Assembly (NCBI GenBank): GCA_964389675.1
Contig: CAYMEV010000003.1
Coordinates: 65,109 to 129,108, forward strand
Reading direction: 5' to 3'
From: an uncultured Candidatus Sumerlaeota bacterium
Lineage (GTDB): Bacteria; CAYMEV01
DNA length: 64,000 nucleotides
Under the pieces are notes generated by a model, which was given only the letters and a program-made list of their open reading frames with translations, made no database searches and was not told the origin of the DNA. Below, one piece after another: positions 25,988-51,541 of the stretch. Each line of letters begins with the position of its first letter. The first letter of the stretch is position 1. The position numbers and the translations under genes are program-made.

Positions 25988-27067
25988 ATGGCCATTGTAA
26001 ATGCATTAAAATTTGATAGATCTTCTGTCGGGATCATTGCTGATGAAGAATACTGGTTTCTTGGAAGGAGGAAAAGCTATTTCCAGGATACACTTCAGCA
26101 TCTTACAGACGAAGAAATAATAGAGAAAACGGGTATTGTAGCCGTTTATGGGGGAACAGGCACCCCTTCATTTCATTGGGATATTATCAAAAAAAGCAGG
26201 GCAAAGATAAAGGAGGAATTCTCAAACAGAGCTAAAAATATCAAGACCATATATGATATCAGCAAAATTGTTCTTGATGTTCTGCAGGATGTAAAAAGAG
26301 ATAGAATAAACCAGAAACTGAGATTTATGTACGGCTTTACGATTGATGATATAAACAGGGGGTTTTTTGAATTTGAGGGTAAAAAATACGATATAAAGCA
26401 AAAAAAGATAAAGGATAAATCACTGGGACTGGTCATGGGAAGCGATAAATCTCACCTTACCAAGCCCATACTTGAGAACAAGGCGGTAATATGCGGTTAT
26501 GACCAGAAGGACGGCATATCAATGTACTACCTGAACTCTGAAAACTCTGTTATGTCATTTACTTCCGGGGGATACGAAGCTATCGGTCCTGGCAAATATG
26601 CATCAGGCCTTGCATTTGCGGAATTTTTCCAGGGAATGCCGTTATATAAGAGAAGAGAGGGGTTTTCAAGGATAGAGGGGATGATACAGCTGATAAATTC
26701 GGCTATCATGGCTGCTGACTATTATAATGAAGTTGGCGGGCTTTTTAATATAATATTCATTGATGGAGAAAAGAAAAATCCCAAAGAAAGGGTTATAGAA
26801 GTCTTTGATAATAAAGGCAAACTTGCAAGCGAGATAGTGAGAAGCTTTAAATGGGGCATGATAACAAAGGAAGAGACTGCAAAATTTATCGATGAGCTGA
26901 TATTTAAGCAGTCTTCTGTAGATGCCCTTGAGGATAAACTTTATAAAGCATCAAAGGATCCAGAAAAGCTTGAACTTCTTTTAAGGGGATACAAGGAAAT
27001 GGAGCTTTGCGAACAGGCCAGCGGGAAGCAGACAAAAGAAAAATCAAAGAAGGCAAAAGGAGAGTAG
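25988..27067 (+). CDS. Hypothetical protein with an HslV/proteasome-beta-like (Ntn hydrolase) N-terminal region; Ala2 in place of the nucleophile
   Basis: MAIVNALKFDRSSVGIIADEEY resembles TTIVGVKYDGGVVLAADTR. VAVYGGTGTPSF resembles the HslV segment VIAGFAGGTADAF. AIGPGKYASGLAFAEF resembles AIGSGGPYAQAAARAL. Tandem paralog of 27069. Confidence 0.3.
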   Translation: MAIVNALKFDRSSVGIIADEEYWFLGRRKSYFQDTLQHLTDEEIIEKTGIVAVYGGTGTPSFHWDIIKKSRAKIKEEFSNRAKNIKTIYDISKIVLDVLQDVKRDRINQKLRFMYGFTIDDINRGFFEFEGKKYDIKQKKIKDKSLGLVMGSDKSHLTKPILENKAVICGYDQKDGISMYYLNSENSVMSFTSGGYEAIGPGKYASGLAFAEFFQGMPLYKRREGFSRIEGMIQLINSAIMAADYYNEVGGLFNIIFIDGEKKNPKERVIEVFDNKGKLASEIVRSFKWGMITKEETAKFIDELIFKQSSVDALEDKLYKASKDPEKLELLLRGYKEMELCEQASGKQTKEKSKKAKGE

Positions 27068-27068
27068 T

Positions 27069-28112
27069 ATGACATCAATTAATGCTATGAAGTTTAATGA
27101 AAAGCAAGGTATATTGATCTGTGACGAATCACGAGGCTGGAATCCGGAAGCAATGAAGCTTCAGACCTCTGATAAGATAAAACCTGTCGTTGAACCTGAG
27201 ATTACCAAAGATACCGGACTGGTAGCCTATTATGGAAATACCGGGACCTCATCAATAGGGGACGAGCTTAAATTCTCAATAAAGCAGGCAATCTCAAAAA
27301 GATTTGAGGAAGAAACCTCAAAAAGGCTGTCATTGCCTAAGGATTTTCTTACCATAGAGCAGATAGCCTCTCTTGCATATGATATACAGATTAATATGAA
27401 AAGGGAGCACATTGATGAGACGCTTCTCGGAAGATACGGCTTTTCCGCAAAGGATTTTATCTCAGGGGGATACACCAGGGATGGCCAGAAGATAGAAATA
27501 AAATCAGAAGAGATAATAAATACGGTTGCTGATGATTTAATATGGAACGGGAGAAAGGGCGAGCCGACCCCCATATTTCTTAATGCAGGGATTATTGCAG
27601 GCTATGAGCCTAAAGAGGGGTTCCGCATCTTCCATCTAAGCCTGATCGATTTCAGCTGTGAGCCCGTCCAGGAGCTCTTTTTAGGAGATGGATCGGGAAG
27701 GGATATGACCACAGTGGTATTTACTGAGCACTCCAATAAAAAGACTGTTCCTGAAAAGAGAGGAAATATTGATGTCACAGAGGGGCTTTTTATTGCTATT
27801 AAAGCAGTAAATGCAGCAGCAAGGCATGACCTGGGTGTCGGAGGTCAGTTTTCAATAATGTATATTGACGGAAATCAGAAAGACAATCTCAAAAAGACAA
27901 AAGAAATGTCAGATATGAGGATTAAACTTCTTTCAGAACTTGTTGAGGCAAATTATTATGAGGTCGTCAACAGGGATGTCTGTTACTTTGCCATAGAAAA
28001 GATAATACTTGAAGATCAGGACTTCTATACAACCTATGAGCAGGTAAAGGGCAAAATAAAGGATTTCAGGAAGTTTTCAAGATTCCTCAGAGGCTACAAG
28101 TTTAAGATGTAA
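27069..28112 (+). CDS. Hypothetical HslV/proteasome-beta-like protein retaining Thr2 (possible N-terminal nucleophile)
   Basis: MTSINAMKFNEKQGILICDES resembles MTTIVSVRRNGHVVIAGDG. Also carries the VAYYGNTGTSSI motif. Paralog of 25988, separated from it by 1 nt. Confidence 0.3.
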   Translation: MTSINAMKFNEKQGILICDESRGWNPEAMKLQTSDKIKPVVEPEITKDTGLVAYYGNTGTSSIGDELKFSIKQAISKRFEEETSKRLSLPKDFLTIEQIASLAYDIQINMKREHIDETLLGRYGFSAKDFISGGYTRDGQKIEIKSEEIINTVADDLIWNGRKGEPTPIFLNAGIIAGYEPKEGFRIFHLSLIDFSCEPVQELFLGDGSGRDMTTVVFTEHSNKKTVPEKRGNIDVTEGLFIAIKAVNAAARHDLGVGGQFSIMYIDGNQKDNLKKTKEMSDMRIKLLSELVEANYYEVVNRDVCYFAIEKIILEDQDFYTTYEQVKGKIKDFRKFSRFLRGYKFKM

Positions 28113-31001: not shown

Positions 31002-32009
31002 CTATTTCTTTTCTAATTGCAGTGAAAGGGTTTCATAAGCTTTTAAAAGCCTTTTAATTATCTTGATTGCTTTTGCTTTTATTTCCTTGTTTTCCAATTT
31101 TCTTATTTTATCAGGATGGAATTTATGGACAAGCTTATTATAGTTCTTATCAAGCTGTTTCTTTGTATAGGGATCCTTTATTCCCATCAGCTTAAAATCG
31201 TCTATTTTGCTCAGGTTTTTATAGAAAAATTCTATATTGGATATAATGCTGTCATCTTCTTTGGCGAATTTATAAAGCCTTTCAATTATACCGCAGGATA
31301 TAAACCCGAAAAGGGTCTTGTAGGTAAAGTAATCTGGAAGGTTTGAATGTGCACAGATCTGATCATTGGTATTCCTGCCGTTTATCAGCTCCAGGATCTG
31401 GAGTTCTTCCGAGTTAAGCTTAAGTTCCTGAAAACGGAAGATGGGGTTATGCGATATGCAGTAAACAGCATTCAGATCTCCGACTGCTTTCCTTATAGCA
31501 TCCCACTGTCCCATTCTTTTGACCCCGTTGAATATAAGGCTTCCGGTAGAAAGCTCTATCTTTATATTTTCACTTTGAATTTCCTTCTCGAAGAAGCTGT
31601 AATCTCCGTCAGAGAATGAAAACAGGCTGTAGATGATCTCTTCCAGGTGGCTCTGGACAGCTTTGACCAGTTCCTTTTCAGAGATCGCCCCCATATTCAG
31701 CAATGTTGTCCCGATACGGTCTTCATTCTGAACCTTCACTGATTTTTCCAGTTCTTTAAGCGTTATAAGAGAGCGCTTCAGGCAGTAAACGCCAATCCTG
31801 TCGTTAATATCGCTTGATATGGCAAATACTATGTGCCCATCCTGGAAAAGTACCTTTTTTATGGTGTTCTGCCTTATAATCTGCAGTATGCCTGTTTTCT
31901 GAGTCTGGTAAATAGACCTGAAAACAGCAGATATAGGGATATCGCTTAAAGAACCCTCTATTTTGTGCTCCATGGAAGTGATTTTCCATAAATTAAGAGT
32001 GATTGTCAA
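31002..32009 (-). CDS. DUF4388 (PATAN-like) domain protein with a C-terminal DnaJ J-domain
   Basis: N-terminal DUF4388 pattern (GSLSDIPISAVFRSIYQTQKTGILQI....VLFQDGHIVFA). C-terminal J-domain with the HPD motif (YNKLVHKFHPDK). Confidence 0.6.
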   Translation of the reverse strand: MTITLNLWKITSMEHKIEGSLSDIPISAVFRSIYQTQKTGILQIIRQNTIKKVLFQDGHIVFAISSDINDRIGVYCLKRSLITLKELEKSVKVQNEDRIGTTLLNMGAISEKELVKAVQSHLEEIIYSLFSFSDGDYSFFEKEIQSENIKIELSTGSLIFNGVKRMGQWDAIRKAVGDLNAVYCISHNPIFRFQELKLNSEELQILELINGRNTNDQICAHSNLPDYFTYKTLFGFISCGIIERLYKFAKEDDSIISNIEFFYKNLSKIDDFKLMGIKDPYTKKQLDKNYNKLVHKFHPDKIRKLENKEIKAKAIKIIKRLLKAYETLSLQLEKK

Positions 32010-32197: not shown

Positions 32198-33124
32198 ATG
32201 GCTGAAATTGTATACAGGGAAAACCAGGAAGAAAGGCTTATAACCCTTGATAAGGATTCATTTGTGATTGGCAGAAGCCCAAGCTGTGAAATTGCAATAA
32301 GCAGTGACACAATATCAAGAAGGCATGCAAAACTGGAAAAAAGGTCAAACCGGTATTATATTACTGACCTTGGAAGCAGGAATGGTGTTTTTGTCAATGA
32401 TGAAAAGATAGTTGAATCAGTACTGAAGGATGGAGATTTTATCAAGCTTGGTGTTTTTGAGTTTACCTTTCATGATAAAGAGCCTGTTATTGTAGACAGC
32501 AATAAGACAATACAGCAGGAGCAGAAGACCATTATGCTGGAAAACCCGCTTGAGAAATTCATATTAAAGGACCTTCCGGCATCTGAGGATACATATATTG
32601 AAAAAAAAGAAAAAGATAAAGTAATTGAAGATGATATAATTGCTGAAGACCGGCAGGAAAGTACGCCTGATGATGATGAAAGCGAAATTGAATCAGATGG
32701 ATACTTCCCCAACCTTCTGATCTTTCATGATGAAAAGGCATTCAGGGCTACCATAAAAAAGAACCGTAATACGATCGGAGGTTCTGCGATTTCTGATATA
32801 CCCATAAATCACGAAGGTTTTCCTGAATCAGCCTGTATTATCAGGAATGAAAAGGGCATTTTCTATTTAGTGGATGAATTTCAGACAGGGGAGATCATGT
32901 ATAATAATGTCCCTGTAATACATAAAAGACTGTTTGATAAGATGATATTTATGATTCAGGATGTGACTTTCCAGTTTATTTCCAATAAGAAGGGTGCTGA
33001 AGCAGTTTTTGAAAAAGTTTATGCTGTCTTCAGGATTTTTATTGAAAAACCTCTGATAGGCATGGCATTTGTTGCTGGAATTCTTATTCTGATCTCTCTT
33101 CTTCTTGTTATATTTTTATTATAA
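32198..33124 (+). CDS. FHA-domain protein (one clear and one probable FHA) with a C-terminal TM anchor; SctD-like cytoplasmic module
   Basis: FHA motif VIGRSP.CEIAI..DTISRRHAKL....YYITDLGSRNGVFVN. A second FHA-like block (NTIGGS...ACIIRNEKGIFYLVD). A C-terminal hydrophobic helix MAFVAGILILISLLLVIFLL. Confidence 0.65.
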   Translation: MAEIVYRENQEERLITLDKDSFVIGRSPSCEIAISSDTISRRHAKLEKRSNRYYITDLGSRNGVFVNDEKIVESVLKDGDFIKLGVFEFTFHDKEPVIVDSNKTIQQEQKTIMLENPLEKFILKDLPASEDTYIEKKEKDKVIEDDIIAEDRQESTPDDDESEIESDGYFPNLLIFHDEKAFRATIKKNRNTIGGSAISDIPINHEGFPESACIIRNEKGIFYLVDEFQTGEIMYNNVPVIHKRLFDKMIFMIQDVTFQFISNKKGAEAVFEKVYAVFRIFIEKPLIGMAFVAGILILISLLLVIFLL

Positions 33125-33140
33125 AAATTAAGGATATTTT

Positions 33141-33845
33141 ATGAGCCTGAGAAGCGAACCTTCTAATGAGCTGTCTGAAGAACTGATACAAAATTACCAG
33201 GATTATCTAAGAAAGATCGCATATTTTGTGAAGATTACGCTTCCTGATAATATTGAGATCGACGACCTGGTCCAGTATGGGGAGATCGGCCTGATAGAAG
33301 CAGCAAGAAAATTTGATCCGAAACTGGGTGTTTCGTTCAAGACATACAGCTATTACAGGATCAGGGGTGCTATATATGACGGGCTCAGGACCATGGGGCT
33401 TTTTAAGGCAAAACAGTATAAGAATCATGTAATGCGCCAGAAAATCAATGACCTGATGATGCAGGAAACAAATAATGTAAATATAAACAGCGATACCTGC
33501 AGAAATGATGACAGCGTTGAAAGACTGCGGGATATATTTTCCAGTGTTGCAACACTTATCACTCTTTCTTATGCATCTTATATGGACCATGAGGTACAGA
33601 ACGGCAATGATGATATAAATAAGGAGCTTATAACCGAGGAAACAAAATCCTTAATTATGAAGGCAATTGAACAGCTTTCCCATAAGGAAAGAAATGTTGT
33701 TAAGCTTTACTATTTTGATGAACTGACATTTGAAGACATCGGCAAAGAAATGGGGCTTTCAAAGAGCTGGATTTCACGTGTACATCTGCAGGCGATAAAT
33801 AAGCTTAAGCAGAAGCTTAAGCAAAGTAATATAACAACATATTGA
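33141..33845 (+). CDS. fliA: Sigma-28 (FliA/WhiG) family RNA polymerase sigma factor
   Basis: Sigma-70 region 2 (DLVQYGEIGLIEAARKFDPKLGVSFKTYSYYRIRGAI) and region 4 (LTFEDIGKEMGLSKSWISRVHLQAINKLK). 234 aa, typical of FliA. Confidence 0.8.
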   Translation: MSLRSEPSNELSEELIQNYQDYLRKIAYFVKITLPDNIEIDDLVQYGEIGLIEAARKFDPKLGVSFKTYSYYRIRGAIYDGLRTMGLFKAKQYKNHVMRQKINDLMMQETNNVNINSDTCRNDDSVERLRDIFSSVATLITLSYASYMDHEVQNGNDDINKELITEETKSLIMKAIEQLSHKERNVVKLYYFDELTFEDIGKEMGLSKSWISRVHLQAINKLKQKLKQSNITTY

Positions 33846-33897
33846 CAGATAGAATCGATAATCTATATGTAATGTTATATAAGGAGGTGTCGCAACT

Positions 33898-34359
33898 ATG
33901 GATCCTGTATCGTCAAAGACTGTAAAAAAAAGCATTAGCAATATTGCTGAGAAGAATATTCAGAATGAGATGAATAAAAATCTTCCGACAAATCCAGATA
34001 AACCTTCCAGCTTTGAGCAGCTTCGGCTTGATAAGGTAAATGAAATACCAAAGGATGCTGAACTTAAGGTTAACGAGGTTGGAAAGCAAAAAGATATGGA
34101 TATATCAAGCACGCAGAAAGTCCAGGACAATAATCCCATAGACGGCTTGAAAAACCTGACCGATAACCTTGAGAAAAGCAATGTAGAGCTTGATAATCTC
34201 ATCAAGAGTGTTATGCAGGATGGCAGGTCATTTTCACCGTCTGAACTGATGGCAATGCAAGCTCAGATATATCAGCTTACCAGGGAGATAGAACTTACCA
34301 GCAAGGTTGTTGAACAGGCCAACCAGGGCATAAAGACCATGCTGAATCAGCAAGTATAA
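33898..34359 (+). CDS. FliE-like or T3SS inner-rod-like protein
   Basis: The C-terminus (SELMAMQAQIYQLTREIELTSKVVEQANQGIKTMLNQQV) resembles the FliE C-terminus (...MQ...KLV.AYQEVMSMQV). Sits in the fliE position before the MS-ring gene. Confidence 0.35.
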   Translation: MDPVSSKTVKKSISNIAEKNIQNEMNKNLPTNPDKPSSFEQLRLDKVNEIPKDAELKVNEVGKQKDMDISSTQKVQDNNPIDGLKNLTDNLEKSNVELDNLIKSVMQDGRSFSPSELMAMQAQIYQLTREIELTSKVVEQANQGIKTMLNQQV

Positions 34360-34370
34360 GGAGAAACTGC

Positions 34371-35171
34371 TTGAAAAAAATAAAAATCTTTTTAACCATG
34401 TCTATTTTACTTATGATGTTCGTATCCTGCGGGAATACAGTTCTGTACCACGGGCTCTCGGAAAGGGGAGCAAATGAGATACTGGTCATACTTGAACAGA
34501 ATGGGATAGCGGGGGAAAAAGTACTGGATGAAACTCAAAAAAAGATCATGCTCTTTAATATTGTCGTGGCAAAAAGCGATAAGAACCAGGCTCTGGAAAT
34601 CCTGAAAGAGAAAGGCCTTCCAAGGATAAACCCGGTTGGCATGAATGAGATGTTCAGCGGGTCCAGCCTTATTCCCACCATTACAGAAGAAAAAGCCAAA
34701 TATCAGATAGCAATGCAGGGTGAGATCGAAAAAACCCTTCTGCAGATGCAGAATGTTATTTCAGCAAGGGTCCATCTTGTTATTCCGGATGCAGATAATG
34801 TCGAACAGCAGAATGAACCTGCGATAGCCAAGGCCTCTGTATTTTTGAAATACTACCAGGGCCTGCAGCAGACACCAATGTTTACGGAAAAGGATGTGCA
34901 GAATATTGTTGCAGGGGCAGTGCTTGAGCTGACTCCAGGCAATGTTACTGTAGTGCTTCAAAGGATACAGCCTGTCGAGGTATCCCAATCATCGCCAAAA
35001 TATACCAGTTTCATGTTCTATAATATCGCGCCTGAATCAAAAAAGAGCATGCAGATAACACTTGTTATTATCTTATCAGTGGTTTTTATACTTTTATTTG
35101 CTATAGTTATAATGTTCCTGAAGATCAAGGATTTGAAAACATCCCTAAGCATTATAAAAACAAAAAAATAA
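34371..35171 (+). CDS. SctJ/YscJ-like lipoprotein (truncated FliF-family MS-ring protein)
   Basis: Lipoprotein signal MSILLMMFVSC. CGNTVLYHGLSERGANEILVILEQNGIAGEKV resembles YscJ/EscJ C.EQLYTGLT.KEANQM.ALLQSNGI.AEK. ISARVHLVIPDADNVEQQNEPAIAKASVFL resembles both the FliF and SctJ ring-building motif. One C-terminal TM. 266 aa, versus about 550 for FliF. Confidence 0.7.
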   Translation: MKKIKIFLTMSILLMMFVSCGNTVLYHGLSERGANEILVILEQNGIAGEKVLDETQKKIMLFNIVVAKSDKNQALEILKEKGLPRINPVGMNEMFSGSSLIPTITEEKAKYQIAMQGEIEKTLLQMQNVISARVHLVIPDADNVEQQNEPAIAKASVFLKYYQGLQQTPMFTEKDVQNIVAGAVLELTPGNVTVVLQRIQPVEVSQSSPKYTSFMFYNIAPESKKSMQITLVIILSVVFILLFAIVIMFLKIKDLKTSLSIIKTKK

Positions 35172-35175
35172 TAAT

Positions 35176-36123
35176 ATGCAGGAAATTAAGACATTTGTAA
35201 GTCTTCTGGCCTTCCAGGATATAGACAGGAAGGATGACCTGCTTGAGTATCTCTGCAATGACTGTAAAGAGATCTGCGCGCAATACCTGCAGGAATTTGA
35301 AGGGAAAACTCAGGAAGAAATACATAAATTATCCCTGATTGAGCTTAAAGAGGATATCGCAAAAAATTTTCTGAAAATATACAGTTCTTTCCATTTCAGC
35401 TGGCTTGAAGATTTTTTCAGGAATGAAAGCCGGGAAACAATATCAACAGTCCTCAAATTCGTCCCTCTTGAGATGTCCGGCGCTATTCTCGGGTTATTTT
35501 CCGAGGAGGAAAGAAATGAGATCCTGCAGACAATACCAAGCTCATTTGTTAGCAGGGAGATAATGGAGATTCTTAAATTCAGCATTATTGAAAGGTACGG
35601 AGCGATTCCAGCTGATGCGGACCAGATTATCCGGAGTGACCAGATACTCAAGTTTCTTATGCAGAATGATGTTGATCTTACCAGCTTTCTTTCCTTTATA
35701 TATTCTTATGAAATATATGCTCTTTTAAGCAAGACAGTTTCTGCTGATAACAGAGCACAGATATGCTCTGAGATGAGTACGGAAAAAGATATAAATGCAC
35801 AGGTTGAATGGTTTAACAGGGCACATGCTTCAATTGATTTTGATTATACTGTATTTTCCAGAGCATGTGATTTCAGGATCTCTGTCAATAAGGGATACCT
35901 TATAATCCCCTTTATCAGGATTTTTACCTGCCTGCAGTCAAAGAACCTTATAAAAAGTGCTGCAAGGGCTATTTCATACAGGATGGAGATGTCAGCGGGG
36001 AATGATTTTCTGCTTTTTTGCGAGGACAATGAAAAAACAGCAAATCCAGTCAATGCAGAGATGAATTCAAAGAGACTGTCAGAAATAATACATAGCTATA
36101 AGTTATTTAAAAGCGAGGCTTAA
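35176..36123 (+). CDS. FliG/MgtE-N-like domain protein in the fliG position
   Basis: SRETISTVLKFVPLEMSGAILGLFSEEERNEILQTIPSSFVSREIMEIL resembles the FliG middle-domain pattern HPQTIALILSYL.PDQAAEIL..LPEELQAEVV.RIA. The C-terminal torque-helix motifs are not evident. Confidence 0.35.
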   Translation: MQEIKTFVSLLAFQDIDRKDDLLEYLCNDCKEICAQYLQEFEGKTQEEIHKLSLIELKEDIAKNFLKIYSSFHFSWLEDFFRNESRETISTVLKFVPLEMSGAILGLFSEEERNEILQTIPSSFVSREIMEILKFSIIERYGAIPADADQIIRSDQILKFLMQNDVDLTSFLSFIYSYEIYALLSKTVSADNRAQICSEMSTEKDINAQVEWFNRAHASIDFDYTVFSRACDFRISVNKGYLIIPFIRIFTCLQSKNLIKSAARAISYRMEMSAGNDFLLFCEDNEKTANPVNAEMNSKRLSEIIHSYKLFKSEA

Positions 36124-36125
36124 AA

Positions 36126-36770
36126 ATGTCATTTTCAGACGATACCAAAAAGGTGGTTATTCAGAAAAGTTCGGACGATATCATCGGCCCGCCTCCTGAG
36201 AGGAAGATCCTTACCAAACAGGAAATTGATGCATCAAAAATGGCTCAGACGATTATCGAAGAGGCAAAGAAGAAGGCTGAGGAGATAATAGGGGAAAAGG
36301 AAAAAATAGTAGAGGAAGCCAAAAATGAGGCTTACAATGAGGGTTATAAAAGCGGGCTTGAAAGTATCAATAAGATTCTTCTGGAGCTTAAGGACCTGAG
36401 GAACAATACAATTGTGGCCATGGAGTCTGAGATAGTAAAACTGGCTTTCAGGATAGCGAGGAAGATACTCGGATATGAAATGCAAAGGGACGATACAACG
36501 GTGTTGTCCATCGTTAAAGAGGTATTAAAGGCTTCAAGGCACCAGAAGTCTATTAAGCTGTCTGTAAACCCTGATGATTATAAAATAATAAAGCAGAACA
36601 GGGAGAGCCTTGTTGCTGTTCTTACAAAATGCGAAAGTTTCCTGATAGAGCCGAATGAACATATTTCAAAGGGAGGCTGTGAGATTGAGACGGAGATAGG
36701 AAATGTATCAGCAAACCTCGATACGCAGCTTGAGGTTCTGGAATCACTGCTCTTGAACAAGGAGGTATGA
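36126..36770 (+). CDS. FliH/SctL family T3SS ATPase stator-regulator
   Basis: Charged coiled-coil N-terminus ([35 protein letters not shown]) followed by a FliH-type C-terminal domain. Immediately precedes the ATPase gene. Confidence 0.6.
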
Positions 36771-38101
36771 AATTGGCTTCATCCCCCATTAAACTGGATA
36801 AGTACCTTAAACTGCTTGATACAGCAAGCACTGTAAAGGTAAGAGGGCGGGTAATTGAGCTTACCGGGCTTATTATAAAGGCTTCAGTACCCGGTGTCAG
36901 GATCGGCGAAACATGTTATATCGAGTCATATAACCGCGTATCGCCTCTTAAAGCAGAGGTAGTCGGATTCAAGGGAGATAATGTAATGCTTATGCCGCTT
37001 GGTGACCTGACAGGCATAGGGCCTGACAGCCAGGTGATACCCACAGGCAAATCCTTCAGCATAAGAATAGGGGACCAGCTTCTCGGCCATGTGCTCGATG
37101 GACTGGGACAGCCTCTGGATATAAGCGAGGAAGAGTTTCAAGGCTTTGATCTCGATACATATTCCGTTAATTCCGATCCCCCGGATCCCCTTAAGCGCAG
37201 AAGGATACTTGATTACCTGTCAATAGGGATCAGGGCAATTGACGGCCTGCTTACTGTCGGAGAAGGGCAGAGGATGGGCCTTTTTGCAGCAGCTGGTGTA
37301 GGCAAGTCAACCACAATGGGAATGATAGCCCGCAATACTGAAGCTGAAGTGAACGTTATTTCATTGATAGGGGAAAGAGGAAGAGAAGTAAGGGATTTTA
37401 TGGAAGAAAGCCTTGGAGAGGAAGGTTTGAAGAAATCAATTGTCGTTGTGGCCACATCTGATAAACCATCTCTTGTAAGGCTTAAATCAGCATTTGTTGC
37501 CACGGCCATAGCGGAATATTTCCGTGATAAAGGCAGAAAAGTGATGCTTATGATGGACAGTGTCACAAGGTTTGCAAGAGCACAGAGGGAAGTTGGGCTG
37601 GCCCTGGGTGAACCGCCTGCAAGGCAGGGATACCCCCCGTCTGTCTTCTATATGCTTCCCAAACTCCTTGAGAGGACAGGGAATTCAGACAGGGGATCAA
37701 TTACGGCTTTCTATACTGTCCTGGTCGCGGGGGATGATATGACAGAACCTATTGCAGATGAGGTAAGGTCCATACTTGACGGGCATGTTATCCTTTCACG
37801 CGAAATGGCATCAAGGAATCATTATCCTGCTATAGATGTGCTAAGAAGCGTCAGCAGGGTAATGACTGCGGTAGTGGACAAGGAGCATATAGAGTTTGCG
37901 GGCAGAATGCGTGACCTTCTGGCTACATACGAGAAACAGAAAGACCTTATACTAATCGGAGCATATAAGAAAGGCTCTGATGAAAAGGTAGACAAGGCAG
38001 TTGAAATGATTGACAGGATCAACGAGTTCCTGAAACAGGGGCTTTATGAGAAGTGCTATATTGATGAAACGATTGAGAAACTGAAAGAGATGTTTGCATG
38101 A
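36767..38101 (+). CDS. Type III secretion ATPase (FliI/SctN)
   Basis: Walker A AAGVGKST, a Walker B region and full-length F1-like architecture. 444 aa. Overlaps the fliH-like stop by 4 nt. Confidence 0.9.
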
Positions 38102-38601
38102 GCGGCAGGATAGTATACAGGCTTGAACCGGTCCTTAACCAGAAGGAAGAAGAGAAGAACGAAGCTACCCGGAATCTTGCCTTTGCACAGAAGAAGCTTG
38201 AAGATATCAGGGAAGAGATCAGGGGGCTTGAGAACCTTGTAATAAAAAGGGTTGAAGAGAAAAAGCAGGCGGAGCTTGCTCACTTTGAAAAACTCAGTAC
38301 AGAGGGGATGGCTGCAAAGTCTATTCAAGGACACCAGGCTGAAATGAAAGCCATTGATATATCAGTTGAGGAGATAAAGGAAAAGATAAGCTTAAAAAAA
38401 ATAGAGGAAAAGAATGCCGAACAGGATCTCAATACTGCTAAGGACAGGCTGGTTGAAGCAACCAAGGAATACAAGACCATGGCGAAACACAAAGAAAATT
38501 TCATCAGGGAACAAAGGGCCATTCTCAGCAAAAAAGAACAGAAGGAAATGGACGAAATTTCCAGTTTGATATATAATTTCAAGGGGAAAGGAGATGAATG
38601 A
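38098..38601 (+). CDS. FliJ/SctO-like coiled-coil chaperone-escort protein
   Basis: 167 aa, predicted all-helical and charged. In the position that follows the ATPase in T3SS operons. Confidence 0.45.
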
Positions 38602-39259
38602 TATGGAAAAGGTATCGACCACAACACAGAAAACAAAAGCAGCACCCAGCGATACCAAGCAGACAAAAGACGCAAAACAGCCATCAGAAAAGTCTTTTGC
38701 AAAGGTATTTCACCGAAAGGGTGAAGATCTGTCAATGCATGACTCAAAGAAGGATATAAATAAGCAGTTAAGGAAGGATATAATACTGGGTGAAGACACA
38801 GAGAAGAAAGAGAAAGGAAAGGAAGGAAGTGAAGAAAAGCTTGATGGATTCATGATCCCGAGACTCATTTCAGAAAAATCAGGTGCTGAAGGCATAAAGG
38901 AATCCATTAAGGTCGGGGAAGCGAAAGTAAAGCTTGACGAGAATCTTATAAACAGGATTGTTGAATCTGCCAGGATCGTGAGAAAAGGTGATACAGCTTC
39001 AATGGAGATCAATATCAAATCGGATGTTTTTGAAAACCTTAAGCTTATTGTCACAGCTGAGGGTAATGCAGTTAAAACAGAGTTCATTACGGACAACCCA
39101 ATGCTTAAGGGGCTTATTAAGGATTCAATGGTCGATCTTGAGCAGAGCCTCGTTGCAAGAGGCCTTGAGGTTCTTGATATTGTTGTCAGGGATGAGCCTC
39201 CTAAGTCTGAAAGCCAGAAACAATACGATGAGTACAGGAGAATAAATGAGCAGAAGTAG
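38594..39259 (+). CDS. FliK/SctP-like length-control / substrate-specificity-switch protein
   Basis: Lys/Glu-rich low-complexity N-terminus. The C-terminal about 100 aa (ENLINRIVESARIVRKGDTASMEINIKSDVFENLKLIVTAEGNAVKTEFITDNPMLKGLI) are T3S4-like. In the fliK position. Confidence 0.4.
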   Translation: MNDMEKVSTTTQKTKAAPSDTKQTKDAKQPSEKSFAKVFHRKGEDLSMHDSKKDINKQLRKDIILGEDTEKKEKGKEGSEEKLDGFMIPRLISEKSGAEGIKESIKVGEAKVKLDENLINRIVESARIVRKGDTASMEINIKSDVFENLKLIVTAEGNAVKTEFITDNPMLKGLIKDSMVDLEQSLVARGLEVLDIVVRDEPPKSESQKQYDEYRRINEQK

Positions 39260-40709
39260 CCTACCAGTCAATATCAGGTCTGTATCTGAGCTGGAGCATA
39301 AAATGAAAATTATTGCAAATCAGCTTGAATCAGACCTTATCTATGAATTCAGCCAGGAGATTGAGAACCTGTTTAAGGATAAGCACATACTTATCAGGTT
39401 CCAGGATAAAGTTGAATTGTCCATGTTTGACAAAGAAACTGATCGTGTTGAAGAAATCTTTTCATACTCAATGGATAAAGGGGAGATAACTCTTGGAAAA
39501 GCCCCAAGCAATGATATCGTCATTATTGAAAGGTATATAAGCAGAGAGCATGCCTTTTTCAAGCTGACTGACAAAGGGGTCTTCCTTACTGACAACGGAT
39601 CAACAAATGGTACTTATATTAATGGAGTAAAAATGAATCCGAATGACCCCCAGCAGCTGAATAATGAAGATATACTGCATTTTGGGGCGCAGAAGATCAA
39701 GTTCTGCATAAAGAAAGAGGCTTCAGATGATATAAGGCTTAAATCCTCCTGTTCCGTAAGCATTGAAAGGAACAGCCCCATTATAAAACCGATCTATAAG
39801 TCTCCGATAATGATCTGCAGATTTATCAAGAGCAATAAAAAAGTAATATTTGAGACAGACCGCTATTTTTTCTATGATATAATAAATTCGCTTCTTGGTT
39901 TTGGCGAAACTGAGGGATTTGTCTATGAAAAACCTGTAACAGAGATCGAAGAGGGCGTTTTCCTGTATCTGTTTGCACTGGTTCTTGATAAAATCAACAG
40001 GATTCTGATACCTGAAGAGGATATTCTGGTATTTGAAAAAAAGGGCACCGGGGATGACCTTATTATCAGCGGAGAATATCTCCAGCTGGGGTTGTGTATT
40101 AATGCAAACAGGAATAAATACGGCATCAGGATATATATTGAAGGTGATTCTTTAGGCATAAAATCAAGCGTCAATAACGGATTCAGGCCTGAAATACTCG
40201 GCATACTTTCTGCTGAACCTGTAAGCCTTGACCTGCATGCAGGCAAGGCAAGCCTTTCATACGATGAACTCAAATCCATTAATAATCAGTCCATACTTAT
40301 AATAGATAAATGGTATCTTAATTCGAGAACTCCCCAGGCGGACGATGTGATTGTCGTAAGCCAGCCTGATACGGGCATATGCTTCAGGGGGCGGGTATCA
40401 GATAATAAGAGTAAATTTCAGGTTATTATCGATCAAATATTCAAAAAGGAGAATCTATCTATGGATGAATTTGATACGGAGAAAGATAAGGTTATCGGCA
40501 ATCTTGATACAGAAATATATGTGGTGCTTGCATCAAAGAAGATTGCACTTTCTGAGCTTTCAAAGATAAAAAAGGGAGATATTCTGGATTTTGAGGGTAA
40601 AATTGATAATAAGGTGAGCCTTGTTGTCAATAAAAGCGTTTTCGCAAAGGGAGAGCTCATTGAATATGAAGGAAAGATAGGCGTTGAGATTACCGATGTC
40701 CTTTATTAA
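39246..40709 (+). CDS. FHA domain fused to a FliM-like middle domain and a FliN/SpoA C-terminal domain (SctQ-like C-ring protein)
   Basis: FHA: ITLGKAPSNDIVIIERYISREHAFFKLTDKGVFLTDNGSTNGTYING. FliM-like block IINSLLGFGE....TEIEEGVFLYLFALVLDKI, resembling IDRLLGG.G....LTEIE. SpoA/FliN C-terminus VVLASKKIALSELSKIKKGDILDFEG...SLVVNKSVFAKGELIEYEGKIGVEITDV. Confidence 0.7.
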   Translation: MSRSSLPVNIRSVSELEHKMKIIANQLESDLIYEFSQEIENLFKDKHILIRFQDKVELSMFDKETDRVEEIFSYSMDKGEITLGKAPSNDIVIIERYISREHAFFKLTDKGVFLTDNGSTNGTYINGVKMNPNDPQQLNNEDILHFGAQKIKFCIKKEASDDIRLKSSCSVSIERNSPIIKPIYKSPIMICRFIKSNKKVIFETDRYFFYDIINSLLGFGETEGFVYEKPVTEIEEGVFLYLFALVLDKINRILIPEEDILVFEKKGTGDDLIISGEYLQLGLCINANRNKYGIRIYIEGDSLGIKSSVNNGFRPEILGILSAEPVSLDLHAGKASLSYDELKSINNQSILIIDKWYLNSRTPQADDVIVVSQPDTGICFRGRVSDNKSKFQVIIDQIFKKENLSMDEFDTEKDKVIGNLDTEIYVVLASKKIALSELSKIKKGDILDFEGKIDNKVSLVVNKSVFAKGELIEYEGKIGVEITDVLY

Positions 40710-49552: not shown

Positions 49553-51541
49553 ATGGAAAACGAAAGATTCAAGGGATATATACTTTTCGAAAAATTCAGG
49601 AAGACTGAACTTATCGAGAGTTACAGGGGTGTAATGCCCAGTGCAAACCCTGCGCATGACCAGATTGACCTGCTGAATACTCAGCTGAGTTCCAATGCAA
49701 AATTCTGCAATATTCTTTCTGAGCACATGGAGAAGATAAAAAGAAATACCGACCTTCAGGGTATTTTTAAGATCAAGGAATCTGGCACCTTTGATGACCA
49801 TTTCTATGTTGTGAAGGATTATAAGAAAGCAAAAAGCCTGAAAGATATAATCACTGAGTCAAATGAGCAATACTTTCCGATCAATCTCGACCATTCAGTT
49901 TATATAGTCAGACAGCTCTCTGCCTTTTTCCAGTATATCCTTGCCAATGTGGACAAAGGGACTGTCCTTTATTTTATTGATCCCGAGGATATAATAATTA
50001 CCTTTGAGGGAGAGATTTTCCAGGATAATCTTTATCTTGCCGATGCTATCACCCAGACATTCGGTAAAAGCATTCCCAGATTCGGGAATTCAGTGTCCTA
50101 TTTTGCCCCTGAATACATAAGCAAAGGAATAATCAGCGAAAAGAACATTATTTTTTCTCTTGGGGCGGTCTTCTATGAGATATTAAGCAATAAAAGGCTT
50201 ATGCCTGATAATATTGATGAATTTAAGAAATCCCTGGATTCTTTTTCATACCCTGAAGAAAGTGATTTTGAGGAGACAATTGACCAGCAGCTTCTGGATA
50301 TTCTGACCAAGATGATACAGATAGACCCCGATGAGAGGTATGAAGACCTGAATGCCCTTCAGGCAGACCTTGATGAGTATATAGAGGAAGGTGATTTTTC
50401 ACCGACGACCTTCCATTTTGTATTCTTTCTTGAGACGCTTTTCAGGGAATATACCGAGAAGCTTCCGAAGGTTATGGAGCAGGAGATAGAAGAAGCCAAG
50501 CACCTTGAGCTGGAAGCAATAAGGGAATCTGAAGAGGAAATGCTTCAGCAGAAGATGGAAGAAACAAAGAAAGAGAGCAAATTCCCTGTACTTCCAGTGG
50601 TCATAGTGCTTCTTTTTATCGGCCTTATTATAGTGGGCCTTACATTGCCGAGAGCATGGAAAGATGAGGCTGAGGCCATGCTTGAGGAGAAGAAGAAGGA
50701 ACTTGAAAAGGCACAGACATATGACCAGACAGAACCTGCAGAAGTCCCTGCAGAAGTGGATACTGAGCCTGCAGAGCCCGATGAGGATTCAGGCCAGACA
50801 GAGCCTGTTGTTACTGAGCCCCCTGTACAGCCTGAAGACATAACAGAAGAGCCTCCGGTACAGGATGATGCGGAACAGAGGAGGCTGGAAGCAGAAAGGG
50901 CTGAAAGAGAGAGGATCGAACGGGAAAGAAGGGAACAGGAGAGGCTTGCTCAGGAGCAGGCGGAGAAGGATCAGGCTGAAAAGGATAGGCTTGACCGTGA
51001 AGAAAAACAGAAACTGGAAAGGATAGATAATCTGGTACAGACTGCACAGTCACAAATAGCAGATAAGAATATTGATGAAGCAAAAAAATCTGTTTCCAGC
51101 ATACTGGAGATCGATCCGGAGAACGAAAAGGCAAATGATCTCAGCATTGAGATTGATAAGATAGAAAGAGACCTGTCCAAACAGCGCAGGGCAGAGCTTG
51201 TAAAAATCCCTATCAACATATCAGAGGCAGATACAGAACCGACTCTTATAAACAGTCCCCGCATAGACCTGCGGCAGGTCGAGGGGCGAATACCCCGGGA
51301 TATCCTCAGGGACCTTAAGAACAGGGTAAACAGAATAACTGTAAGGATGCTTGTATCAGAAAATGGGGATGTAGAGTCTGTTGAGGAAATATTTGTGCAG
51401 AAGTCTGTTTATGGGACATTTGAGAGGACAGGATTGATCGCGGAGATCGATAAGCAGATAAGGTCAGCGAAATATACACCTGCTATTAAGGATGGGATGA
51501 AAAGGAAGTGTTATGTGACACTGACATTTCCCTGGAATTAA
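49553..51541 (+). CDS. TonB-like membrane protein with a cytoplasmic Ser/Thr-kinase-like (pseudokinase) domain
   Basis: Kinase-fold remnants: YFAPEYI matches the APE motif; NIIFSLGAVFYEILS matches subdomain IX. No G-loop, HRD or DFG. One TM helix (FPVLPVVIVLLFIGLIIVGLTL). An acidic Pro/Glu-rich and ER-repeat linker. A C-terminal TonB_C-like domain (ITVRMLVSENGDVESVEEIFV...AKYTPAIKDGMKRKCYVTLTFPW). GGAGGG SD 7 nt before ATG 49553. Confidence 0.55.
   Translation: MENERFKGYILFEKFRKTELIESYRGVMPSANPAHDQIDLLNTQLSSNAKFCNILSEHMEKIKRNTDLQGIFKIKESGTFDDHFYVVKDYKKAKSLKDIITESNEQYFPINLDHSVYIVRQLSAFFQYILANVDKGTVLYFIDPEDIIITFEGEIFQDNLYLADAITQTFGKSIPRFGNSVSYFAPEYISKGIISEKNIIFSLGAVFYEILSNKRLMPDNIDEFKKSLDSFSYPEESDFEETIDQQLLDILTKMIQIDPDERYEDLNALQADLDEYIEEGDFSPTTFHFVFFLETLFREYTEKLPKVMEQEIEEAKHLELEAIRESEEEMLQQKMEETKKESKFPVLPVVIVLLFIGLIIVGLTLPRAWKDEAEAMLEEKKKELEKAQTYDQTEPAEVPAEVDTEPAEPDEDSGQTEPVVTEPPVQPEDITEEPPVQDDAEQRRLEAERAERERIERERREQERLAQEQAEKDQAEKDRLDREEKQKLERIDNLVQTAQSQIADKNIDEAKKSVSSILEIDPENEKANDLSIEIDKIERDLSKQRRAELVKIPINISEADTEPTLINSPRIDLRQVEGRIPRDILRDLKNRVNRITVRMLVSENGDVESVEEIFVQKSVYGTFERTGLIAEIDKQIRSAKYTPAIKDGMKRKCYVTLTFPWN

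Follow-up and report, generated by a model that had tools for sequence, protein, structure and literature searches.

A SctJ-type ring lipoprotein with a FliG-like neighbour in an injectisome-type gene cluster of an uncultured Candidatus Sumerlaeota bacterium

A cluster of about 16 intact, co-oriented and nearly contiguous genes occupies positions 32198-44716 of the 64,000-nucleotide stretch of DNA analysed in this work (hereafter the window; positions 65,109 to 129,108 of contig CAYMEV010000003.1, assembly GCA_964389675.1, from an uncultured Candidatus Sumerlaeota bacterium). Within this cluster, the open reading frame (ORF) 34371-35171 (+ strand; all coordinates are those of the window) encodes a lipoprotein of 266 aa, and the next gene (35176-36123, + strand) encodes a FliG-like protein of 315 aa. 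In an earlier note on this DNA the operon was considered flagellar and fliF was expected at the position of the ORF, which raised the question of how FliG would dock without the C-terminus of FliF. As judged from its sequence, the product of ORF 34371-35171 is a genuine SctJ, i.e., the inner-membrane ring lipoprotein found in type III secretion systems (T3SS), and not a shortened FliF; the protein itself is thus a member of a known family. Its FliG-like neighbour lies between sctJ and sctL, in the slot of sctK.

The SctJ protein begins with a signal peptide (residues 1-19) followed by the lipobox Cys20 (nt 34428-34430), two ring-building motif domains (RBM1, residues ~22-80, and RBM2, residues ~104-199), a hydrophobic stretch that forms a predicted transmembrane segment (TM; residues ~228-250, nt 35052-35120) and a conserved, basic cytoplasmic tail of 16 aa (residues 251-266). 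Its N-terminal sequence is MKKIKIFLTMSILLMMFVS-C20-GNTVLYHGLSERGANEILVILEQNGI (...LLMMFVSC at Cys20), in which MKKIKIFLTMSILLMMFVS-C20-G comprises a basic n-region, a hydrophobic core and a lipobox of the [LFV][VI][SA]C type. The lipobox and the residues after it were quoted correctly in the earlier note, and in the alignments all five of the closest homologues share Cys20, as do nearly all of a set of 26. The single C-terminal TM was also recognized there, but the claim that no cytoplasmic tail follows it does not hold, because the 16 residues KIKDLKTSLSIIKTKK after the TM are conserved in relatives. The start codon of sctJ is TTG, with AGGAG located 7 nt upstream. The database gene call (P0001) begins at an internal ATG and gives a protein of 257 aa; as homologues showing 59-68% identity retain the longer N-terminus with the basic n-region, TTG is the better start.

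Profile searches placed the protein clearly on the SctJ side of the YscJ/FliF family, which answers the comparison of the YscJ/PrgK/EscJ and FliF families proposed in the earlier note and bears out its description of a SctJ-type lipoprotein. Pfam YscJ_FliF (PF01514) matches residues 23-198 (1e-26, 94.3 bits, cutoff 24.4), and there is no Pfam match to YscJ_FliF_C (PF08345), which corresponds to RBM3 and the beta-collar. The NCBIfam SctJ model (TIGR02544) gives 2e-46 and 158.1 bits, whereas the next-best full-length model, FliF (TIGR00206), reaches 5e-11 and 42.2 bits (cutoff 129.75), spanning FliF positions 38-216 only. When phmmer was run against the PDB, PrgK was the top match (1.4e-14), aligned over residues 5-204, from the lipobox and signal peptide to the end of the second domain. 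The AlphaFold2 model, based on 26 homologues, has a predicted local distance difference test score (pLDDT) of 79.2 and consists of RBM1, RBM2 and a long C-terminal helix (224-265). Its top Foldseek matches were PrgK, MxiJ and EscJ (E 4e-13 to 7e-12; target-normalised TM-score, TMt, 0.62-0.74), and FliF fragments mostly ranked behind them, with one FliF integrative model in third place.

The protein shares with PrgK, EscJ, MxiJ and YscJ the lipobox Cys, the L-x-x-GL-x-E-x-x-ANE N-terminus, the two RBM domains, the C-terminal TM and the location of its gene after sctI. It departs from them in its conserved short basic tail and in its score on the SctJ model, which lies 3.9 bits under the equivalog cutoff (161.95) and counts against an unqualified assignment. 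It also departs from FliF: a lipobox stands in place of the N-terminal TM, RBM3 and the collar are missing, and the protein ends, at 266 aa in total, with a tail of 16 aa instead of the FliG-binding tail of ~40 aa. In a scan of GTDB species genomes, the closest SctJ (70% identity) was found in 'uncultured bacterium SRP241341_co1_270'; beyond the clade of the window, relatives occur in Myxococcales metagenome-assembled genomes (MAGs; 38%) and in many Chlamydiota (25-34%), so that its identity to the closest relatives bearing a name spans 25-38%.

It is hardly conceivable that a full-length FliF, or a fusion of the FliF-FliG type, was broken up by a frameshift in sequencing or assembly; a sequencing frameshift involving this ORF and the next was named in the earlier note as what would overturn its observation. 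The sctJ gene terminates with TAA TAA (35169-35174) and the next ATG, at 35176, is in another frame; no RBM3 or collar sequence was found downstream of sctJ, and the protein ends in a TM and a tail, like PrgK. Furthermore, the two genes remain separate and in the same order in the related loci L001/L002, L003, L004 and L010, whose SctJ proteins show 45-70% identity and which derive from independent assemblies (NCBI, Logan, ENA and a GTDB MAG). A fusion with the downstream gene was thus ruled out.

The 315-aa neighbour, which the earlier note rightly called FliG-like, is a diverged FliG whose relationship to FliG can be demonstrated at the sequence level. Its N-terminal 125 residues comprise part of FliG_N and a FliG_M-like region, and its C-terminal half is divergent and helical. 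Pfam FliG_M (PF14841) matches the protein with 28.3 bits (cutoff 25) and also matches all eight of its aligned relatives (best 9.8e-11). A profile built from these eight relatives retrieved FliG as each of the ten best PDB matches (best 1.7e-5), with residues 19-120 of the query aligned to residues 62-161 of Salmonella FliG; the protein therefore lacks some 45 residues that FliG has at its N-terminus, and its FliG_N region is shortened. No Pfam match to FliG_N (PF14842) or FliG_C (PF01706) was found in it, so the C-terminal, torque-generating domain of FliG is not recognizable, while the middle domain (ARM_M), with which flagellar FliG binds FliM, is retained. With the structural model, Foldseek returned FliG structures only, and FliG_M fragments superposed with TMt values of 0.71-0.73. 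Residues W76, L77, E84 and P97 do not vary among 71 sequences; in the alignment to FliG, E84 falls on the E of the EHPQ segment, which we take to be the FliM-binding EHPQR motif, and is the sole residue of that motif retained.

The family itself is rare. An exhaustive HMMER search among 1.84 billion sequences, performed with the window's own FliG-like family (FliG itself being unreachable at that database size), recovered 4 representative clusters of this family, and a word-indexed search with the single protein gave 3 matches. The only other match of the exhaustive search was P0167, a protein encoded outside the window, which has 314 aa, matches FliG_M and FliG_C in Pfam and gives an E-value of 9.8e-4 to the window family.

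All remaining genes of the cluster are on the + strand as well. It is headed by a gene for a 308-aa SctD-like membrane anchor with two forkhead-associated (FHA) domains (32198-33124), followed by a FliA/WhiG-type, sigma-28-like factor (33141-33845; NCBIfam TIGR02479 2.6e-43, below cutoff), which is syntenic in L001, L003, L004 and the Myxococcales locus L011. Directly before sctJ lies a gene (33898-34359) for a SctI/SctF-like rod or needle-family protein of 153 aa with a conserved C-terminal helix (Pfam T3SS_basalb_I 2.2e-6, 28.4 bits, cutoff 32.4; NCBIfam SctI domain 6.4e-5), whose orthologues in L001, L003 and L004 have precomputed T3SS_needle_F matches. Downstream of the FliG-like gene there are genes for the SctL/FliH stator (36126-36770; Pfam FliH 5e-21, NCBIfam HrpE/YscL 5e-35, with SctL TIGR02499 at 87.1 bits over its cutoff of 78.7), the SctN/FliI ATPase (36767-38101), the SctO/FliJ stalk (38098-38601; Pfam YscO-like 1.8e-14, FliJ 7.8e-9), a weakly assigned SctP/FliK-like length-control protein (38594-39259; Pfam Flg_hook 7.5e-7, 29.3 bits, cutoff 29.8) and a SctQ with an N-terminal FHA fusion (39246-40709). 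A small single-TM protein encoded before sctR, in the position of fliO (40684-41067), is weakly assigned, with a faint match to a FliZ model (0.0025) and none in Pfam, and is syntenic in L001 and L004. Then follow SctR (41048-41815; Pfam FliP 3e-71), SctS (41817-42086; Bac_export_3), SctT (42099-42905; Bac_export_1) and SctU (42905-43957; Bac_export_2 1.7e-112), and the cluster is closed by a conserved 252-aa protein (43958-44716) for which neither Pfam nor NCBIfam gave a family and whose gene is syntenic in L001 and L004.

Several observations concern the surroundings of the cluster and its expression. A gene for a DUF4388 (PatA_N)-DnaJ protein (31002-32009, - strand) lies divergently beside it and is syntenic in L001, L003 and L004. 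Further upstream, two adjacent paralogues without a Pfam family (25988-27067 and 27069-28112; 359 and 347 aa) form a pair that is syntenic in L001 and L003. The sigma-28 promoter pattern TAAA-N13-17-CGATAA occurs twice against 0.9 expected, neither match being rightly placed before sctI or sctJ; a generic promoter and terminator scan of the window was uninformative, and the window gave no rRNA, tRNA or Rfam matches.

The order I-J-(K)-L-N-O-P-Q-R-S-T-U is a flagellar order and equally an injectisome order, as exemplified by a canonical non-flagellar (NF) T3SS locus, L007, arranged X-SctJ-215aa-SctL-SctN-X-SctQ-R-S-T-U. Pfam scans covered the window ORFs of at least 150 aa apart from five (a response-regulator-like protein, a signal peptidase and three others without expected bearing), and revealed no flagellar rod, hook or filament protein, FliF, FliM, MotAB or FlhA within the 64 kb. 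The injectisome-type parts include the SctI/F-like protein, a SctO for which YscO-like prevails over FliJ, a membrane protein of the FHA/YscD-cytoplasmic type, SctL and SctQ. As the order is equally injectisome-type and flagellar-specific genes are missing from the window, sctJ is what belongs at this position; the expectation of a fliF gene falls away, and the apparent paradox arose because an injectisome-type operon was read as a flagellar one.

It is accordingly improbable that the operon is flagellar or flagellum-derived, with its MS-ring gene replaced by or truncated to a SctJ-like one and FliG still acting as a rotor or switch protein. The FliA/WhiG-type sigma factor, the FliG_M match, the FliK-type Flg_hook match, the slight excess of the FliQ over the SctS score, a FliI_clade2 score over the cutoff and a FliH_bacil match of 4.5e-28 speak for such an origin. 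Nevertheless, the SctI/F-like, YscO-like, SctL and SctR models score equally or better, the MotA-interacting FliG_C domain is undetectable in the FliG-like protein, and the nearest relatives of SctJ belong to the NF-T3SS of Myxococcales and Chlamydiota. The ATPase and the export-gate proteins score almost equally on the flagellar and NF models of NCBIfam: 638.4 bits for FliI_clade2 and 636-638 bits for the NF models in the case of the ATPase (SctN TIGR02546 636 bits, both over their cutoffs), 214 and 223 bits for FliP/SctR, 82.8 and 73.7 for FliQ/SctS, 153.2 and 154.6 for FliR/SctT, and 341.2 and 342.7 for FlhB/SctU.

According to Abby & Rocha (PMC3459982), nine genes form the core set of NF-T3SS, namely SctC, J, N, Q, R, S, T, U and V. 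The window contains all of them except SctC and SctV, which may lie in another part of the genome; SctC is also lacking in Myxo-type systems. The absence of sctV, secretin and translocon genes from the window, together with the former annotation of similar Myxococcus loci as relics (PMC3459982), might suggest a decaying T3SS without present function, whose arrangement would be mechanistically meaningless. This is very improbable, as none of the about 16 genes is disrupted, the genes are closely spaced, and their synteny is kept across lineages down to 45% identity. In comparisons of the window, L001 and L004, the proportion of nonsynonymous differences (pN) amounts to 0.17-0.24 in sctJ, to 0.29-0.39 in its FliG-like neighbour and to 0.04-0.07 in sctN; these values are far below the saturated proportion of synonymous differences (pS, about 0.7), thus the genes are under purifying selection. 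Moreover, the needleless T3SS* of Myxococcus xanthus was shown experimentally to function in prey lysis (PMC12075869).

In the product of the first gene of the cluster, a canonical FHA1 domain (residues 15-94) is joined through an acidic linker to a degenerate FHA2-like domain (residues ~175-265), and a TM (residues ~283-305) ends the protein. This product matches Pfam FHA (7e-28) and Yop-YscD_cpl (5e-19); its PDB matches include the FHA domain of CT664 (3gqs; 1.5e-6), and the top PDB profile matches of FHA2 are FHA domains with a marginal E-value of 0.03. An FHA1-FHA2-TM protein heads the operon in all relatives, and the alignment of the anchors of the window, L001, L003 and L004 showed that the second domain and the terminal TM are conserved. 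The protein is similar to CdsD, the double-FHA protein of Chlamydia, in its cytoplasmic part, the ring-forming part being absent. Since periplasmic ring domains are missing from this SctD-like partner, the periplasmic inner-membrane ring of the system may be built by SctJ alone.

In SctQ, the FHA domain occupies residues 74-154 (Pfam FHA 2.6e-19) and the SpoA/FliN_C domain residues 418-486 (Pfam FliMN_C 6e-14; NCBIfam SpaO_YscQ 6e-13), and this architecture is conserved in L001 and L004. No FliM_M-like match was found by sequence when its middle domain was compared with the PDB. Both FHA1 of the anchor and the FHA domain of SctQ have canonical sequences of the phospho-threonine-binding type, similar to GarA and OdhI, and the latter may read phospho-threonine marks. 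Just downstream of the cluster there are genes for a diguanylate cyclase of the FHA-GGDEF type and for a Ser/Thr protein kinase (45747-46703 and 49538-51541). Given three FHA proteins in the neighbourhood, these genes suggest phospho-threonine/c-di-GMP control of the machine.

The FliG-like protein has counterparts next to SctJ in two other groups of bacteria. In Myxococcota, a 337-aa protein represented by more than 100 clusters (many of them named FliG by JGI) matches FliG_N, FliG_M and FliG_C, and the corresponding gene directly follows a gene for a SctJ-like lipoprotein in all three loci examined. An orphan trio was observed in Myxococcota/'Deltaproteobacteria' MAGs (L005:10001-12932, L006:10001-12979 and L008:10001-12942), consisting of a SctJ-like lipoprotein (292-306 aa, with a conserved cytoplasmic tail of ~35 aa), a full-length FliG-like protein (337 aa) and the gene for a TrkA/Ion_trans_2 channel; within 10 kb of the trio, further T3SS genes are lacking. 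In Chlamydiota, an ORF of ~285 aa directly follows sctJ in about 56 of 79 mostly chlamydial loci, and its products remain below the Pfam threshold of FliG_M. Comparison of the families with hhalign linked the chlamydial family to the Myxococcota one (96.7%, E 3.7e-10, 261 columns) and the window family to the Myxococcota one (95%, E 3.4e-8, 99 columns). Ct560 is the chlamydial member, for which an interaction with CdsQ was found by yeast two-hybrid (PMC2734247). A 2025 preprint (10.1101/2025.03.14.643159) describes the chlamydial protein as a putative SctK whose structure resembles the FliG, YscK and OrgA families, shows a SctJKL island and presents an AlphaFold3 complex with SctD FHA2 and the N-terminus of SctQ. 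In addition, the N-domain of SpaO resembles FliM_M, the FliG-binding domain (Soto et al., PMC9907115).

Taken together, the cluster represents a deep-branching, apparently secretin-less T3SS related to the systems of Myxococcales and Chlamydiota, and the near-equal flagellar and NF scores are consistent with a basal position. Abby & Rocha (PMC3459982) placed secretin-less Myxococcales systems, which they reported to be without FliG, at the base of the NF-T3SS. Like these 'Myxo' NF-T3SS and the needleless T3SS*, the window cluster has SctI and SctJ and, within the window, no secretin or needle was found; the Myxococcales MAG locus L011 shares the sigma-SctI-SctJ-FHA protein order with it. It differs from the Myxo systems in that its sctJ precedes a FliG_M-positive gene, its DNA has about 40% GC, the SctD-like protein is tail-anchored and SctQ is FHA-fused; no Kil/Tad partner was seen within the window.

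With the chlamydial Cds T3SS (CdsJ-Ct560-CdsL) the cluster shares a profile-related protein (~285 aa in Chlamydiota) encoded directly after sctJ and, as in CdsD, two FHA domains in the anchor. The window FliG-like protein reaches Pfam FliG_M, unlike the chlamydial proteins; in Chlamydia, a large domain of CdsD lies in the periplasm, and the system includes a secretin and a needle. The likeness to the flagellar FliF-FliG pair lies in a YscJ_FliF ring gene followed by genes for a FliG_M protein and for FliH, FliI and FliJ homologues. Unlike flagellar FliG, the window protein lacks FliG_C with its torque helix and has a truncated FliG_N, and FliM and MotAB are absent from the window.

We consider it probable that the SctJ protein belongs to an injectisome-type T3SS in which the FliG-like neighbour is a SctK-type adaptor docking on the FHA protein. 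In such a machine, signal peptidase II would cleave SctJ at Cys20, the two RBM domains would assemble around the SctRSTU export gate as a ring in the periplasm, a ~24-mer if it follows the SctJ family, presumably in the way expected from the homology with PrgK and EscJ, and the lipid anchor together with the C-terminal TM would fix this ring in the membrane. The FliG-like protein would act as the ring-to-pod adaptor, with its ARM_M face binding SctQ, as FliG binds FliM, and its other face docking on the cytoplasmic FHA domains of the FHA-FHA-TM anchor, as SctK docks on SctD. The machine would presumably be a secreting one. The docking puzzle of the earlier note thereby has a conventional candidate solution: the injectisome adaptor encoded in this slot binds the cytoplasmic FHA domain of SctD and not SctJ, and an FHA-FHA-TM protein heads the operon. 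Given FHA docking, the FliF C-terminus would not be needed.

Several results weigh against this proposal. The AlphaFold2 model of the FliG-like protein has an overall pLDDT of 59.6 and is good for residues 1-125 only, falling below 50 in the C-terminal half; there was no SctK chain among its Foldseek matches, and no Pfam SctK family (YscK, OrgA_MxiK, HrpB4) matched the protein at E<=1. Comparison of the window family with the chlamydial one by hhalign gave a probability of 73% only (E 3e-5, 267 columns). FHA1 is nearer to generic phospho-threonine-binding FHA domains (GarA) than to SctD, and the anchor falls outside SctD (TIGR02500 0.059 only) through its missing periplasmic domains, none being present after the TM in the window, L001, L003 or L004. 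In the Pfam scans of the window ORFs, with the coverage given above, no gene for the essential SctV, a secretin (sctC), a clear needle or a translocon was detected. The docking partners are those that we infer from analogy and gene neighbourhood, and docking could instead take place on the conserved tail of SctJ.

The last point leads to a miniature version of FliF-style docking, in which the FliG-like protein would bind the SctJ tail KIKDLKTSLSIIKTKK and the FHA proteins would be regulatory, reading phospho-threonine. Among five homologues, this tail is better conserved than the linker before it, and it aligns with the conserved amphipathic tail AEAELASVRKAGR of the FliG-paired SctJ-like proteins of Myxococcota. 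Chlamydiota SctJ proteins (L012-L089, e.g., L016:9944-10939) have cytoplasmic tails of 25-77 aa with their own conserved motif, WK(I/V)xP(I/L)LKxxGG(F/I)KxLFHxxP, directly after the TM, which may be a docking site; the canonical FHA1 and SctQ FHA sequences and the kinase and FHA-GGDEF genes downstream would suit a regulatory role. We regard this arrangement as unlikely. The tail has 16 residues only, and FliF uses about 40 residues for FliG binding; the FliG-like protein is short of about 45 FliG_N residues and has no FliG_N match in Pfam. Furthermore, the injectisome adaptor was reported to bind SctD, not SctJ (10.1101/2025.03.14.643159, PMC9907115).

On a more speculative note, the cluster could represent an extant intermediate stage on the way from the export apparatus of flagella to the injectisome, a view that we put forward tentatively, as a minority possibility. 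Here, a SctJ lipoprotein ring, a SctI-type rod and FHA-based anchoring would already be in use, and a recognizable FliG adaptor, a sigma-28-type regulator and a FliO-like gene would still be retained. SctK would then be a FliG derivative, the junction between the FliF tail and FliG_N would have been replaced by one between FHA and the adaptor, and the tail-anchored double-FHA protein would represent a pre-periplasmic stage of SctD, or else a secondarily reduced form.

The surrounding system is a rare, deep-branching T3SS variant, which departs from known systems by its anchor without a periplasmic domain, its FHA-fused SctQ and its adaptor recognized by neither the SctK nor the FliG_N and FliG_C sequence models. 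The remaining oddity of the locus is that the adaptor in the sctK slot is recognizably FliG-like by sequence. The origin of the injectisome from the flagellum is still argued, and the origins of SctD and SctK are especially unclear, since neither has an accepted flagellar counterpart. If the proposed role of the FliG-like protein fails, the cluster would be merely a divergent NF-T3SS of an uncultured anaerobe. Part of the link between FliG and SctK was already anticipated for Chlamydia (10.1101/2025.03.14.643159). At the level of sequence, the FliG-like adaptor gives a concrete link from FliG to the SctK slot: it exceeds the Pfam threshold for FliG_M and is tied by profile comparisons to the chlamydial Ct560 family and to the large Myxococcota family. 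Together with the FHA-FHA-TM anchor and FHA-SctQ, it makes up a small, testable three-protein system.

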